Source: Lachnospiraceae bacterium (GTDB taxonomy: Bacteria > Bacillota > Clostridia > Lachnospirales > Lachnospiraceae). Taken from it: a stretch of 64,000 nucleotides of DNA. The stretch is taken from contig JAZUGQ010000053.1 in assembly GCA_045641285.1 (NCBI GenBank), forward strand, positions 51,790-115,789. The letters run 5' to 3'. Both the position numbers and the translations under genes were made by a program. Positions 32,797-38,025 of the stretch are shown here, piece after piece; within the stretch, counting starts at the first letter, position 1; every line of letters starts with the position of its first letter. The notes beneath the pieces were generated by a model. That model was not told where the DNA came from and did no database searches. It saw only the letters and a program-made list of their open reading frames with translations.

Positions 32797-32824
32797 AAAT
32801 AATAAATTTCTACCCCAAAAACAG

Positions 32825-32853
32825 TTGACATAATTCATTGGTAGATGTATTAT
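32825..32853 (+). promoter_or_regulatory. near-consensus sigma-A promoter at the left edge of the AT-rich island
   Basis: TTGACA (32825-32830), 17 nt, TATTAT (32848-32853). Confidence 0.55.
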
Positions 32854-32908
32854 GTAAATGTATTGGGGGAGGGTAAACAAAACATCATATATAATATGCA
32901 TGCAATAG

Positions 32909-32945
32909 ACCTCCACTCAATAATAATATATTATTTTGTGGAGGT
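32909..32945 (+). promoter_or_regulatory. SD-sequestering hairpin in the leader of the secreted-protein gene
   Basis: acctccac (32909-32916) is the exact reverse complement of gtggaggt (32938-32945). The latter contains the GGAGG RBS, 5 nt before the ATG at 32950. AT-only 21-nt loop. Confidence 0.45.
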
Positions 32946-32949
32946 TTTT

Positions 32950-33846
32950 ATGTTAAAAAAATGTATCAGATCTGTTGCTGTTATCCTGTTTGTAATTGTT
33001 ATGCTTATAACCAATACAGGAGTATCCAATGCACAAAATTGTCCGCTTACGGCTTTTCCTGCGAATAACGTAAAAGATTATTCTTTCATTCCTGTTTATG
33101 AAGTAAAATATAATATTTTTGCTACAGAGAATTATATACAATGGATATCACCGACAGTAAAAGTCACTGTTAAGGATACTGCCCAAATAGGACAGGTGAT
33201 TGCCAAAGCAACGAGAGCCCGTTCTAACGATAATTTAAATTTTAATACGGCAACTCAAAAAAGAAACAATAATTATATGTTATGCCAACAGGAAATACGA
33301 ACATATAAACGTCAATTTTCTAAATCCGGTAATTTTGCAAGCGGTTATTTTGATAGTGCAATGTTTGCTGTACCGGAACTGTCATATCAGCATATGGAAA
33401 CATTTAGTCCTAAGGCAGTCGCACCGTCCGCAACCATTACGGACAGTATAGAGGTGAGCTTCACAATCGGCACCAAGATTTCAACCTCGGTTAATGCAGG
33501 AATAAACGATGTTTCTTCCGAAATCGGAGCTGACGTAAATATGTCACAAACAACGTCAAGCGGTCAATCGAAAACGACAACAAAACATGCCGTGTCCACA
33601 AGCGCGTTATTTGAAAATGGTAAGCGAAAACTGATTTATCGGTTCAATCATGATGCTTTCAGTAAATTTTGCGGACCGGGAAGCTCCTATCTGGCATTGT
33701 ATGTTGTAAATTATACCAGTGATTGTAAAGCTAAACCTACAAGCAGTGACGGAACAAAATTTCCTGAACTTGCGACAACGATATATTGTAAAGAACAAAA
33801 AAAGACATATAAAGGAACTATGAATTTTAATATAAAAAATTATTGA
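32950..33846 (+). CDS. secreted protein of unknown family with a Sec signal peptide and an amphipathic Ser/Thr-rich beta-hairpin (possible beta-pore-forming toxin-like)
   Basis: 298 aa. Signal peptide MLKKCIRSVAVILFVIVMLITNTGVSNA. Residues ~165-200 (SIEVSFTIGTKISTSVNAGI-ND-VSSEIGADVNM) alternate strictly between hydrophobic and polar. AT-rich codon usage. Confidence 0.7.
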   Translation: MLKKCIRSVAVILFVIVMLITNTGVSNAQNCPLTAFPANNVKDYSFIPVYEVKYNIFATENYIQWISPTVKVTVKDTAQIGQVIAKATRARSNDNLNFNTATQKRNNNYMLCQQEIRTYKRQFSKSGNFASGYFDSAMFAVPELSYQHMETFSPKAVAPSATITDSIEVSFTIGTKISTSVNAGINDVSSEIGADVNMSQTTSSGQSKTTTKHAVSTSALFENGKRKLIYRFNHDAFSKFCGPGSSYLALYVVNYTSDCKAKPTSSDGTKFPELATTIYCKEQKKTYKGTMNFNIKNY

Positions 33847-35152: not shown

Positions 35153-35162
35153 GTAACAAAGT

Positions 35163-35193
35163 GTGCTCCCGGAATTTCTGTATCCGGGAGCAC
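35163..35193 (+). other. GC-rich 11-bp perfect hairpin without a downstream U-tract
   Basis: gtgctcccgga (35163-35173) pairs with tccgggagcac (35183-35193), 9-nt loop. Followed by AAAAAA on the plus strand. Lies between paralog 2 and the ABC gene. Confidence 0.5.
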
Positions 35194-35310
35194 AAAAAAT
35201 AAGTAAAACAAAATTCAAAGTTTGAATGTAAAATAATCAGAAACATTAATTGACATTTCAGAAAGGGAATCCAATCTTCCTGTTTGGTATTTTGGATTAT
35301 TAGAGTTATT

Positions 35311-37971
35311 ATGATAAATCTGATTGAATTATCAAAAGGATACAAAGATGGTATTCGAAACATATCGGTATTGGAGAATGTTTCCATGACGTTACCGGAT
35401 AACGGGATGTGTTTTTTTGTAGGACGCAGCGGAAGCGGAAAAAGCACTCTGTTAAATCTCATAGGAGGAATTATCGGAGATTTTACAGGCTCCATCCGGA
35501 TTGATGGGAAAGAAATCGAAAAATTTACTGAAGAACAATGGAACTTGTATCGAAACAGTAAAATTGGCATTGTATTTCAAAACTACGGTTTGTTTGAATA
35601 CGAAACGGTTCTTGACAATATTCTGCTGCCAACCGTTATAACAGACAGAAATCGAAGTGAAGTTCTCGAAGAAGCAAAACGGTTGCTAAACAAAGTCGGT
35701 TTACCGGGCTATGAACAGTATAAAGTATCCAAATTGAGCGGTGGAGAAAAACAGAGAGTTGCAATTGCAAGAGCTTTGATTAATCACCCTGGCATTTTGC
35801 TTGCGGATGAACCGACCGGCAATTTGGATTATGAGACTTCACAGGGAATCTTTCAATTGTTCCGGGAAATTTCGAAAGAGTGTCTGGTTTGTATTGTAAC
35901 ACATGACTCGGAGTCTGCCAAACAATATGCTGACACCTTATATTCTTTACAAAACAAATCATTTGTTGCAGTACCATTAGGATTGAATCAAAAAGCAAAA
36001 TATTCGATATTGATTTCGGACAATGAAACGGAACAGACAATCAATGACACGGAAATCGATGAAATTGCAAATGTGATTCAGGAGTATATCGGAAAAACAT
36101 ACGATAACCGGAGCGAATTTTCAGTTCATATTTCCAAACAATCGGAAGAAAATATCATTAATGAAGAAGAGAAATCCATAATTACAGAGGGCGAATTCTT
36201 TCAAAGCAAAGAGTCACAGAAACAAATTCCGTCATTTCAAAAAGTAACCATTTCATTTTCGAGAGCAATTAAACGTATCTTTGAAAAATCCCCGATTGGA
36301 TGGGTCAAAGTAATTTTCGGAATTCTTGTTATATCTATCCTGATGGTATTTGCATGTGTTCTTTGGAATTTGCATACGTTTCCGACAGCCTATACTGCTG
36401 AACAGTATCTGAAAGAATCACATGTTCCGATTTGGGAATTATATAAGAAATCAGAATATATTGATTCCAACAATAAAAACGTTGTCAATGTATTGTCAGA
36501 CGGAAATGCCCTTTATCAGTCGTTACCGGATTGTCTTACAAGAGATAAGGCATATCGATTAATATGTCCCATGACAGAATTGGAAACGGAGAATGAAATT
36601 CTACACGATGCGTTTGTTACGAACGAATTACCAAAATATTGTGTCATGGATGGTCGAATGCCAAAAAACGCTGATGAAATTGCCATTGACTTGTCAATTG
36701 CGGAAGGTGAGTTGGAACTCACACCTCCATATATTGGCAAAACGGTTTCCTATTTTGGAAGGCCGGTAACGATAACCGGTGTTTTTCGAGTAAATTATCC
36801 GAACGAAGAGTCTATCAACAAAGAATACGATCCAAAAGAAGATGACGATGACATAGAGGATGTTTCGACGGATGAAGTTACATTTTGGGGAGTAAAATGT
36901 CGGGGACTTGCAATGGTATCGGAAGAATTTCTAACCGAACTAAGAAAAGAAACGAATCTTTTGATAATTTATTACAATAACTTCTATTACAACGATTGGG
37001 AAAGCAAGTACCTGGACAGATATATTACGACTTCTTTCGCACCTCAAAGTCAATATCGAGATGTGACTTTATTGAACGGTCACTATCCGGAAAAACCGGG
37101 TGAGATTCTTGTTTCCGACTCAGTAATTTATAAATTTGTCGGAGATGAATGGTGGTGGAAAGAGGATACAGAAAGAGAAAATGACATTAATGACATTATC
37201 GGAAAACATTATGATTTAATGTCTTTGCACGGAGAGCGTTTTAATGAGTTTTATGACAAAACAATGGACTTGTCAGAGTATTTTCCGAATGGAATTACAA
37301 TTGCCGGAGTCTTTTCCGATGACGAGTTATATGATCAGTTTCCCAATCAGCAAATTCCGGAAATGATCTGCGGTGACGATGTTTTTCAGAAAATGAAAAA
37401 CGATTATTTTGATGATTATATTTATTCGAGAAGTTTGTTTACGATAACCGATGAATTTACGGAAGATGTTATTCAGGAAATACTCGACAATGATATTCTC
37501 ATCGATGATCCGAATTTGAACAGAATTTTGAAACTAAAACAAAAGTTGGAAAATCTGGATATCTATATTATGGCAGCGTTTGTGGCGGTTGTTCTATGCA
37601 TCTTTTTGGTTGCGCTTCTGACAATCAGCGTCAGTATCAACGAAAAGGGATACCTGTTGGGAATCATGCGGTCCATCGGATTTTCCAAGAAGGATTTCAA
37701 AAAGATTTATTTACTGGAATCGCTTCTGATCGGACTCACCTGTGTCATCCTTTCCGTACTGATTTTTAACGGAATTATATACTATGTGAATTGGGATTAC
37801 CGTAAAAATATTTATTACGGACCTTTTCATATTATTACTTTCGGCTACCTTAAAACAATTATCATTGAAGCTGCATGTGTCATTTTATGTGTTTTGGCAT
37901 CATTAATACCGATTTCGTCTCTGTCCAGAAAGAAACCGTTTGATTTGATTTATTCCGAAAAACAGGGATGA
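35311..37971 (+). CDS. fused ABC transporter ATP-binding domain plus FtsX/MacB-type permease with large extracytoplasmic domain
   Basis: 886 aa from MINLIELSKGY. Walker A GRSGSGKST, signature LSGGEKQRVAIARAL, Walker B ILLADEPTGNLD. TM1 at about aa 331-353, about 395-aa loop, then three C-terminal TM segments with the FtsX motif GIMRSIGFSKKD. Weak RBS. Confidence 0.85.
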   Translation: MINLIELSKGYKDGIRNISVLENVSMTLPDNGMCFFVGRSGSGKSTLLNLIGGIIGDFTGSIRIDGKEIEKFTEEQWNLYRNSKIGIVFQNYGLFEYETVLDNILLPTVITDRNRSEVLEEAKRLLNKVGLPGYEQYKVSKLSGGEKQRVAIARALINHPGILLADEPTGNLDYETSQGIFQLFREISKECLVCIVTHDSESAKQYADTLYSLQNKSFVAVPLGLNQKAKYSILISDNETEQTINDTEIDEIANVIQEYIGKTYDNRSEFSVHISKQSEENIINEEEKSIITEGEFFQSKESQKQIPSFQKVTISFSRAIKRIFEKSPIGWVKVIFGILVISILMVFACVLWNLHTFPTAYTAEQYLKESHVPIWELYKKSEYIDSNNKNVVNVLSDGNALYQSLPDCLTRDKAYRLICPMTELETENEILHDAFVTNELPKYCVMDGRMPKNADEIAIDLSIAEGELELTPPYIGKTVSYFGRPVTITGVFRVNYPNEESINKEYDPKEDDDDIEDVSTDEVTFWGVKCRGLAMVSEEFLTELRKETNLLIIYYNNFYYNDWESKYLDRYITTSFAPQSQYRDVTLLNGHYPEKPGEILVSDSVIYKFVGDEWWWKEDTERENDINDIIGKHYDLMSLHGERFNEFYDKTMDLSEYFPNGITIAGVFSDDELYDQFPNQQIPEMICGDDVFQKMKNDYFDDYIYSRSLFTITDEFTEDVIQEILDNDILIDDPNLNRILKLKQKLENLDIYIMAAFVAVVLCIFLVALLTISVSINEKGYLLGIMRSIGFSKKDFKKIYLLESLLIGLTCVILSVLIFNGIIYYVNWDYRKNIYYGPFHIITFGYLKTIIIEAACVILCVLASLIPISSLSRKKPFDLIYSEKQG

Positions 37972-38025
37972 TACCGGAAAATGCCGTAAGAGAGCATTAT
38001 TTTCCAAACTATTTTTCAAAAAGGC

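Follow-up and report, generated by a model that had tools for sequence, protein, structure and literature searches.

A recurrent, unannotated gene cassette with a MacB-type ABC transporter in Lachnospiraceae: a candidate secreted antagonist with its self-protection

Between the histidine-biosynthesis operon and the rimP-nusA-ylxR-L7Ae-infB operon of a Lachnospiraceae bacterium lies a block of AT-rich DNA that carries four genes, here called A, B1, B2 and ABC (Table 1). We analysed it within a stretch of 64,000 nucleotides of contig JAZUGQ010000053.1 (assembly GCA_045641285.1, positions 51,790 to 115,789 of the forward strand), hereafter the window, whose numbering is used unless another locus is named; the names of the flanking genes were read from the precomputed Pfam labels of a locus about 90% identical, L014. 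An earlier note, made from the letters of the window alone, had described here an abrupt switch to AT-rich DNA and AT-rich codons, and a Sec-dependent protein of 298 aa, two membrane-anchored paralogs of 198 aa and an 886-aa fusion of a nucleotide-binding domain (NBD) with an FtsX-type permease, and both descriptions hold. Sliding-window GC is 0.32-0.39 across ~32500-38250 and 0.45-0.50 on either side; the block 32797-38025 has a GC of 0.354 versus 0.470 for the remaining window. GC at third codon positions (GC3) is 0.29-0.36 in the four block genes versus 0.47-0.58 in each of 42 other long open reading frames (ORFs), with length-weighted means of 0.33 and 0.53, and the drop in GC lies mainly at synonymous sites. 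The four genes are co-oriented and tightly spaced behind a strong promoter motif. We find that they are one copy of a conserved, unannotated cassette of three protein families in rumen and gut Lachnospiraceae, in which an ATP-binding cassette (ABC) transporter of type VII is joined by novel extracytoplasmic partners. The cassette is real and conserved and has so far been undescribed, and, judging by its genes and their turnover, it may encode a toxin with self-protection.

About 15 distinct cassettes were counted, in the order A -> B(1-4) -> ABC and at different chromosomal sites, and in about 12 independent loci this order comes with tightly packed genes; the loci compared are nearly all from metagenome assemblies, are few in number and were found through the cassette genes themselves. 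A fast word-index homologue search returned self-matches only for A and for B, which is a sensitivity limit of that search and not orphan status, as homologues of both at 20-40% identity surfaced on inspection of the neighbours of ABC homologues. Full-length relatives of the ABC protein are ~850 aa long and 24-38% identical to it, the named ones all from Lachnospiraceae metagenome-assembled genomes, and directly upstream of them lie one to four unannotated genes of ~200 aa and, beyond these, usually one gene of 250-330 aa. The ~200-aa neighbours are homologues of B (closest BLAST matches 30-40% identity, E~1e-23; hidden Markov model (HMM) E-values to 1e-71), and the larger ones, by local HMMs, are homologues of A, more divergent than those of B; in other loci they precede B and ABC, and their E-values go down to 1e-101. 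In an exhaustive phmmer search of 1.84e9 representative proteins just one relative of A turned up, P0131 (34% identity, E=1e-12), and through it a contig carrying all three families was found. B as bait recovered loci with A and ABC, a five-sequence B alignment finding two loci only among species-representative genomes, and ABC as bait in metagenomes added five loci of the A-B-ABC type and three B-ABC variants. Whichever of the three families serves as bait, the other two are thus recovered, and the co-occurrence of the four proteins (three families) that the earlier note proposed to look for is borne out, the same order being recovered in other loci from every bait. Cassettes sit after mfd, purH, hisIE and other unrelated genes, and therefore the cassette, not the neighbourhood, is the conserved unit. 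In three pairs of cassettes the identities of A, B and ABC are 55/49/46%, 35/35/42% and 28/27/34%, so that A and B diverge about as fast as ABC, or faster.

The base composition goes with the module. In hosts whose flanks exceed a GC of ~0.47 the cassette always lies 5-13 GC points below the flanks, and in the lowest-GC hosts (flanks 0.30-0.34) the gap is at most 1.5 points. Cassette GC follows host GC over a range of 0.29-0.52; low GC is therefore a lasting property of the module and not proof of a recent transfer from an AT-rich donor. None of the four block ORFs matches an integrase or transposase family in Pfam or NCBIfam, the sole tRNA of the window (14097-14180) is ~18 kb from the block, and no direct or inverted repeats flank it, the sole repeat being an internal tandem duplication of 696 bp. 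No match to A was found in a plasmid collection and none to B in plasmid or phage collections, and the viral contigs of IMG/VR hold no relatives of B or ABC. As had been supposed from the lack of integrase, transposase, flanking tRNA and terminal repeats, the block is not a classical mobile element. An Rfam scan of 32400-38700 returned no known RNA element.

Gene A encodes a Ser/Thr-rich, net basic protein that is predicted to be secreted by the Sec route. Its signal-peptide-like N-terminus, ending SNA/Q in the sequence, is an ordinary cleavable Sec signal without a lipobox. The start at 32950 is favoured over the ATG at 32845: a GGAGG Shine-Dalgarno (SD) sequence lies 7 nt upstream of it, and the recorded form of the protein has 298 aa. 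The 5' untranslated region (UTR) contains a hairpin (32907-32947, + strand) in which GACCUCCAC pairs with GUGGAGGUU, the SD sequence of A, matching an anti-SD CCUCCAC to the SD GUGGAGG. The hairpin could be a translational control element; its RNA fold centroid is at -19 kcal/mol, the z-score of the whole UTR (-1.83) is modest against shuffles, and no Rfam family matches. A has no match in Pfam, PADLOC or NCBIfam (0 at E<=1). Profiles of the A family with 11 members find nothing in Pfam at E<=10, nothing in NCBIfam and no credible sequence match in the PDB. The family, small, highly divergent and of no known fold, has no invariant catalytic-type residues, and only Gly/Pro columns are kept.

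B1 consists of an N-terminal transmembrane (TM) anchor (segment 5-23) followed by an outward-facing domain of ~165 aa, and B2 likewise has one N-terminal hydrophobic helix. The two share 81% amino-acid identity and stem from a tandem duplication: 33771-34457 aligns with 34468-35153 at 85% identity with a period of 696 bp. The duplication also copied the last ~75 nt of A, and because of this a relic of the 3' end of A lies upstream of B2. Synonymous divergence (dS) between B1 and B2 is 0.47 and the ratio of nonsynonymous to synonymous divergence (dN/dS) is 0.25, and therefore both copies are under purifying selection. A lipobox-like Cys replaces the plain TM anchor in 7 of the 18 B proteins examined; because several homologues carry a lipobox in its place, the B domain is taken to face outward. 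B has no match in Pfam, NCBIfam or PADLOC, and family profiles of 9 and 17 sequences find nothing credible in PDB, Pfam or NCBIfam. Thus the novelty of the small proteins, which the earlier note had suspected, stands for A and B alike. No invariant catalytic-type residues are present in the B family, one Tyr and a near-invariant Gly being kept, and in profile-profile comparison A, B and ABC, including the outward-facing domain of the latter, are mutually unrelated (probabilities <8%). The spacer between B2 and ABC (35153-35310) is 158 nt long versus ~10-25 nt between B and ABC in other cassettes, and the ABC start has no clear SD sequence. Within the spacer lies a GC-rich hairpin of 10 bp (35163-35193, + strand; GTGCTCCCGG-N11-CCGGGAGCAC), which is followed by an A-run and has no U-tract, as read from the sequence; it may act in processing or stability, or as an attenuator lowering the ABC:B ratio.

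The ABC protein matches Pfam ABC_tran (E=9e-32, residues 30-178) and FtsX (E=4e-15, residues 764-885). It is laid out as an N-terminal NBD, a short linker domain, TM1, an extracytoplasmic domain of ~400 aa and TM2-4, which form the FtsX domain; the TM segments (334-352, 751-769, 796-814 and 850-868) agree with the helices of an AlphaFold2 (AF2) model. The columns of the GxSGxGKT, LSGGQ-type and DEPT motifs are invariant in 27 homologues. With this 27-sequence alignment the AF2 model reaches a pLDDT of 83 and a pTM of 0.70, and its full-length Foldseek matches (ranks 1-7) are solely MacB structures (5gko, 5lj7, 5lil, 5lj6 and 5nik; E 4e-28 to 7e-24, target-normalised TM-score 0.55-0.68), to which sequence identity is 14-16%. 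At the sequence level the resemblance is faint: of the MacB periplasmic core domain, with its Porter and Sabre subdomains, Pfam MacB_PCD gives but a trace at residues 462-508 (E=0.14), FtsX models score the permease half at 19-24 bits versus cutoffs of 225-255, and its best PDB sequence match is YtrF (E=2e-4). The protein reaches the cutoff of no curated family, its permease half being remote in sequence from all of them, and by modelled fold and topology we assign it to the MacB/type VII class as a subfamily of its own. PADLOC returns generic ABC-ATPase matches only and no tie to a known defence system. None of A, B1 and B2 matches a family of MacA/HlyD-type membrane fusion protein (MFP) adaptors; the host is presumed to be a monoderm, in which TolC is not expected.

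Comparison with relatives gives the cassette a history at this junction. L014 (GCA_045597325.1), with a backbone ~90% identical, has hisIE, a 46-aa ORF and rimP, with 586 bp between and no cassette. By blastn, L014 595-9468 corresponds to window 23988-32853 and L014 9646-9819 to window 37948-38112. On the left, homology runs to 32853 and includes the promoter, a 58-nt block with both hexamers being 88% identical in L014. On the right, alignable sequence begins again at 37948, 24 nt short of the ABC gene's end, and the L014 junction reads ATT TAC TCC GAA AAA CAG GGA TAA, that is IYSEKQG-stop, equal to the C-terminus of the ABC protein in frame and peptide. Because a gene-less promoter and an in-frame relic of seven codons remain in L014, the cassette was probably ancestral, with 32854-37947 deleted in the L014 lineage and not inserted in that of the window. 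The synteny comparison suggested in the earlier note finds the block absent from a close relative, but the relic favours deletion there over insertion here. Likewise, the near-consensus promoter of that note is present and probably drives the cassette, but it is not the island's own, being found in cassette-less L014 as well.

The deletion scar of L014 holds a 177-bp stretch with a highly structured repeat, of which a second copy lies 200 bp downstream of the scar and another inside gene A of a divergent cassette of the same genome, L007. The repeat is ~120-150 bp long with nested hairpins (GCATATCGC-AA-GCGATATGC and CTCATAGGA...TCCTATGAG) and is present in at least three copies in GCA_045597325.1 (L014 9469-9646, the scar; L014 9821-9949, between the rimP leader hairpin and rimP; L007 6922-7069) and in none in the window. 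It looks like a small mobile element similar to miniature inverted-repeat transposable elements (MITE) or repetitive extragenic palindromes (REP).

A conspecific metagenome contig, L001, carries the cassette at the same junction (nusA dS=0.0125, rimP identical) and is 98% identical to the window over 34970-41366. Differences from L001 reach 8-27 per 200 bp in patches of the ABC gene versus 0-3 in rimP-infB; the divergent patches are 35170-35970, 36370-36570 and 37770-38158, and dS of the NBD is 0.34. Within-species diversity of the cassette is thus ~tenfold above that of its flanks. Because its overall dN/dS versus L001 is 0.17, the ABC gene is functional, yet by the same comparison far more polymorphic than its surroundings. 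The patchy divergence suggests allele exchange, with a mosaic left by recombination, or else balancing selection; a chimera made in metagenome assembly is a possible explanation as well.

Turnover among cassettes falls mainly on A. The gene is split by the 150-bp repeat in L007, cut down to its C-terminal ~80 aa in L016, and truncated in L010; L022 and the first of the L002 cassettes have no detected A. Every locus not cut by a contig end has B and ABC intact, with one to four diverged copies of B per cassette. From this comparison A appears to be the expendable part, B and ABC being retained. Two genomes that are 97.5% identical, represented by L002 and L012, have B,B,B,ABC versus B,B,A,B,B,ABC; a second cassette of L002 is complete (A331, B215, ABC792), and between the same flanks L012 has a lone B, only 76% identical at the nucleotide level. 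Turnover between the two is thus very fast, and the lone B of L012 resembles, by analogy, orphan immunity genes. In L010 (GCA_017412055.1, 3379-10445) the cassette lies directly 3' of an agr-like quorum-sensing locus that encodes a LytTR regulator, a histidine kinase, AgrB and an AgrD-like peptide of 51 aa with the stretch ...SQACTWWFHQP.... Upstream of this agr-like locus are two more genes of ABC/FtsX type.

Table 1. Features of the AT-rich block and its borders (window coordinates)
Feature	Position	Strand	Remark
45-aa membrane ORF (MNFLAEF..., MNFLAEFIHQLLYFCIYIGIAAAGILAGKKVRDWK...) after hisIE	32659-32796	+	ORF with SD sequence
Sigma-70-like promoter TTGACA-17-TATTAT	32825-32853	+	11/12 consensus matches
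Variable segment, 5,094 bp	32854-37947	+	present in window and conspecific L001, absent from L014 (blastn)
Gene A	32950-33846	+	298 aa
Gene B1	33860-34456	+	198 aa
Relic of gene A 3' end and SD sequence	34468-34542	+	carried in the tandem duplication that made B2
Gene B2	34556-35152	+	198 aa
ABC/FtsX fusion gene	35311-37971	+	886 aa
Last seven ABC codons (IYSEKQG) and stop	37948-37971	+	retained in cassette-less L014

Three features of the flanks may be added. The 45-aa ORF after hisIE, a single-helix membrane protein without a family match, has a 46-aa orthologue in L014 at 9274-9414; it belongs to the backbone, outside the cassette, and marks the left flank. The last his gene (31281-32612; orthologue L014 7948-9228) is a triple fusion of ~426 aa, in which the precomputed Pfam labels of the orthologue give His_biosynth (a HisA/HisF-type barrel), PRA-CH (HisI) and PRA-PH (HisE). 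Between the rimP promoter motif and rimP lies a perfect hairpin, GAGTGGGTTTGAAAAAACCCACTC (38080-38105), kept in L014 at 9786-9812; Rfam gives sub-threshold matches only (L20_leader 23 bits, frnS 24 bits), and the hairpin may be an operon leader element.

What, then, does the cassette do? The reading that we favour, tentatively and with somewhat less than even confidence, is that it comprises a secreted antagonist (A), a surface-tethered immunity protein (B) and a self-protecting MacB-type pump. A would be a Sec-secreted, non-enzymatic, fast-evolving, bacteriocin-like protein acting on the envelope of competitors. B, anchored on the outside of the producer's membrane by a TM helix or a lipid, would bind or block A and so confer immunity. 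MacB-type transporters use mechanotransmission to act on substrates located on the membrane's outer side and do not carry them across it (PMC5985334); as a second layer of self-protection, ATP-driven movement of the outward-facing domain of ABC might push A off or out of the membrane. Such a division of labour would be akin to that of LanI and LanFEG, or to the action of YknWXYZ against the SDP toxin of Bacillus. The proposal builds on gene content, topology, the MacB fold, conserved synteny, the turnover pattern and purifying selection; from these we infer toxicity of A, its neutralisation by B and a role of ABC in protection rather than export. The putative toxin and immunity functions rest on patterns of gene turnover, and we favour a secreted toxin with self-protection because this best fits the gain, loss and decay of the cassette. 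In its favour we count the recurrent gene order, the co-divergence of the families, the expendable A, the amplified B and the orphan B. We further count the lack of invariant catalytic-type residues in A and B, the secreted, Ser/Thr-rich and basic character of A and the agr-like linkage in L010, as well as presence and absence in close relatives, several cassettes per genome, low GC3 and high within-species diversity.

Several observations weigh against a toxin. No similarity of A to a known toxin or bacteriocin could be detected, and AF2 run on A without an alignment gave an unusable model (pLDDT 36.7). A match of a 7-sequence A profile to MACPF/perforin-2 (MPEG1) in the PDB at E=0.005 was gone with 11 sequences, and the MACPF signature is absent from A. 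The 'beta-hairpin' label that the earlier note gave to A, and with it a pore-forming amphipathic hairpin, is not supported, as the alternating pattern is reached by 59 of 300 shuffles and is not conserved in homologues. Membership in the beta-pore-forming toxins of the aerolysin/ETX-MTX2, leukocidin or MACPF/CDC groups is not supported, none of the 11 members matching Pfam at E<=10. Some of the 'broken' A genes may be errors of metagenome assembly, the quorum-sensing linkage is seen in one locus only, and the cassette seems to have been in place already when the L014 lineage split off, so that it would be no recently acquired weapon. Finally, a general envelope-protection module would account equally well for cassettes that lose A and keep B and ABC.

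Such a module, directed against an external antimicrobial peptide or lipid-like toxin of microbial or host origin, would make A a dispensable accessory, a surface decoy or binder and no toxin, with B-ABC comparable to BceAB, YknYZ or Spr0694-0695. B-ABC is indeed the invariant core, A being missing or degraded in several cassettes, the transporter has a MacB fold, and relatives of MacB in Firmicutes make cells resistant to antimicrobial peptides (PMC5768738, PMC5985334). Between this and a self-protected toxin the evidence discriminates weakly. We hold detoxification to be unlikely: most cassettes have A at the same place, and its divergence goes along with that of B and ABC, which is hard to explain if A is irrelevant, and arrays of B paralogues and an orphan B are untypical of detoxification pumps. 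Moreover, Bce-type modules normally have a two-component sensor/regulator, and none lies beside the cassette here or in most loci.

Slightly less likely still, in our view, is that ABC is a mechanotransmission machine in the manner of FtsEX with its partners or YbbAP-TesA, which with ATP switches its own partners, B and/or A, between states; these would then remodel the wall, lipids or surface of the producer. Dedicated extracytoplasmic partners encoded alongside are typical of type VII ABC systems (PMC12646458, PMC6705773, PMC7668044), B always lies directly upstream of the ABC gene and faces outward, and the unusually large outward-facing domain of ABC could dock such partners. Neither A nor B, however, contains a hydrolase or any other catalytic domain, invariant catalytic residues are lacking in both, and FtsX family models stay far under their cutoffs (23.8 bits versus 250). 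Housekeeping envelope machines are conserved, whereas this cassette is accessory, being absent in a close relative and multi-copy in others, with a decaying A. A dedicated release or maturation system, in which ABC with B as its adaptor extracts membrane-associated A after Sec export, would recall LolCDE freeing lipoproteins or MacAB expelling the enterotoxin STII from the periplasm. The fixed order of A, B and ABC, co-transcribed to judge from the gene arrangement, is in keeping with it, as is the ability of MacB-family pumps to move periplasmic proteins and peptides outward (PMC5985334). However, we regard it as very improbable, for cassettes with a lost or broken A keep intact B and ABC, which would leave a dedicated exporter without purpose, and the Sec signal of A is of the ordinary cleavable kind without a lipobox.

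A secreted toxin with self-protection, if that is what the cassette encodes, bears on a wider question: Lachnospiraceae are dominant anaerobes of gut and rumen, and their means of mutual competition are poorly known. Here two unannotated families without a solved relative and with very few database members are joined in synteny to a MacB-type ABC transporter of distinctive make, and the cassette is gained, lost and degraded in a way typical of antagonism and immunity loci. Should A be a toxin, it would be a new protein bacteriocin with a new immunity mechanism. Bolder, and to our mind doubtful, is the idea that A founds a new class of Sec-secreted protein toxins of ~25-30 kDa from rumen and gut Lachnospiraceae, with a fold new to bacteriocins, that B is a new immunity fold shown on the outer face of the membrane, and that the pump is a new subfamily of type VII ABC transporters, specialised to clear a protein toxin from the surface of its producer; if this were true, gut anaerobes would have a hitherto unrecognised system of interbacterial antagonism. 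If A is no toxin, the cassette would still be a new case of type VII ABC machines recruiting extracellular partners in monoderms. Relatives with and without the cassette, and variants that lack A and keep B and ABC, exist naturally and make the system testable.

Among known systems, the lactococcin-972 clusters, to which the earlier note likened the locus, share with it a Sec-dependent product beside an ABC transporter whose NBD is of the same broad LolD/FtsE/MacB-like group. The likeness does not extend to membership. TIGR03608 (L_ocin_972_ABC) is the third-best match of the NBD, at 177 bits versus a cutoff of 254.85, with LolD and FtsE models scoring higher; neither A nor any of the 11 A-family members matches the lactococcin 972 bacteriocin family; and the 4-TM permease half gives weak FtsX/LolCE matches only and none to the 7-TM immunity-protein family. 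All three tests (bacteriocin, TIGR03608 cutoff and 7-TM protein) having failed, membership was rejected; A is, moreover, about four times larger than Lcn972. FtsEX systems (with EnvC, PcsB, CwlO/SweCD or RipC) and YbbAP-TesA likewise combine a type VII ABC transporter with adjacent secreted or anchored partners (PMC7668044, PMC6705773, PMC12646458). Unlike these partners, A and B lack signatures of coiled coils, hydrolases or lipases, nor are catalytic residues conserved in them, and unlike these systems the cassette is accessory and turns over rapidly. Membership in FtsEX was rejected on the FtsX scores given above and on the lack of recognised domains in A and B.

The architecture of the transporter itself is that of the MacB/type VII group (MacAB-TolC, Spr0694-0695, YknYZ, YtrEF, YbbAP), with an N-terminal NBD fused to a four-helix FtsX-type permease and a large extracytoplasmic domain between TM1 and TM2, and, as for MacB, action through mechanotransmission at the membrane's outer face would be expected of it (PMC5985334). 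It differs from MacB in the size of the outward-facing domain (~400 aa versus ~200 aa) and in a small extra domain between NBD and TM1. Unlike MacAB-TolC, the cassette has no MFP adaptor; in its place stand B, with its anchored domain of 165 aa, and the secreted A, both of novel families. For the proposed function the nearest parallels lie elsewhere. In Bacillus, YknWXYZ acts against the SDP toxin, and self-immunity to lantibiotics combines a LanI lipoprotein with a LanFEG ABC transporter (NisI/NisFEG, SpaI/SpaFEG). There is no sequence relationship to LanI or LanFEG; LanFEG transporters are of the ABC-2 type with separate subunits, whereas the cassette transporter is of the MacB type, and the putative antagonist A is a protein of ~27 kDa and not a modified peptide. 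Nonetheless, as in those loci, a small protein tethered at the outer face of the membrane, in the case of B by a lipobox or a TM anchor in turn, is encoded together with an ABC transporter beside the gene of a secreted, here putative, antagonist.

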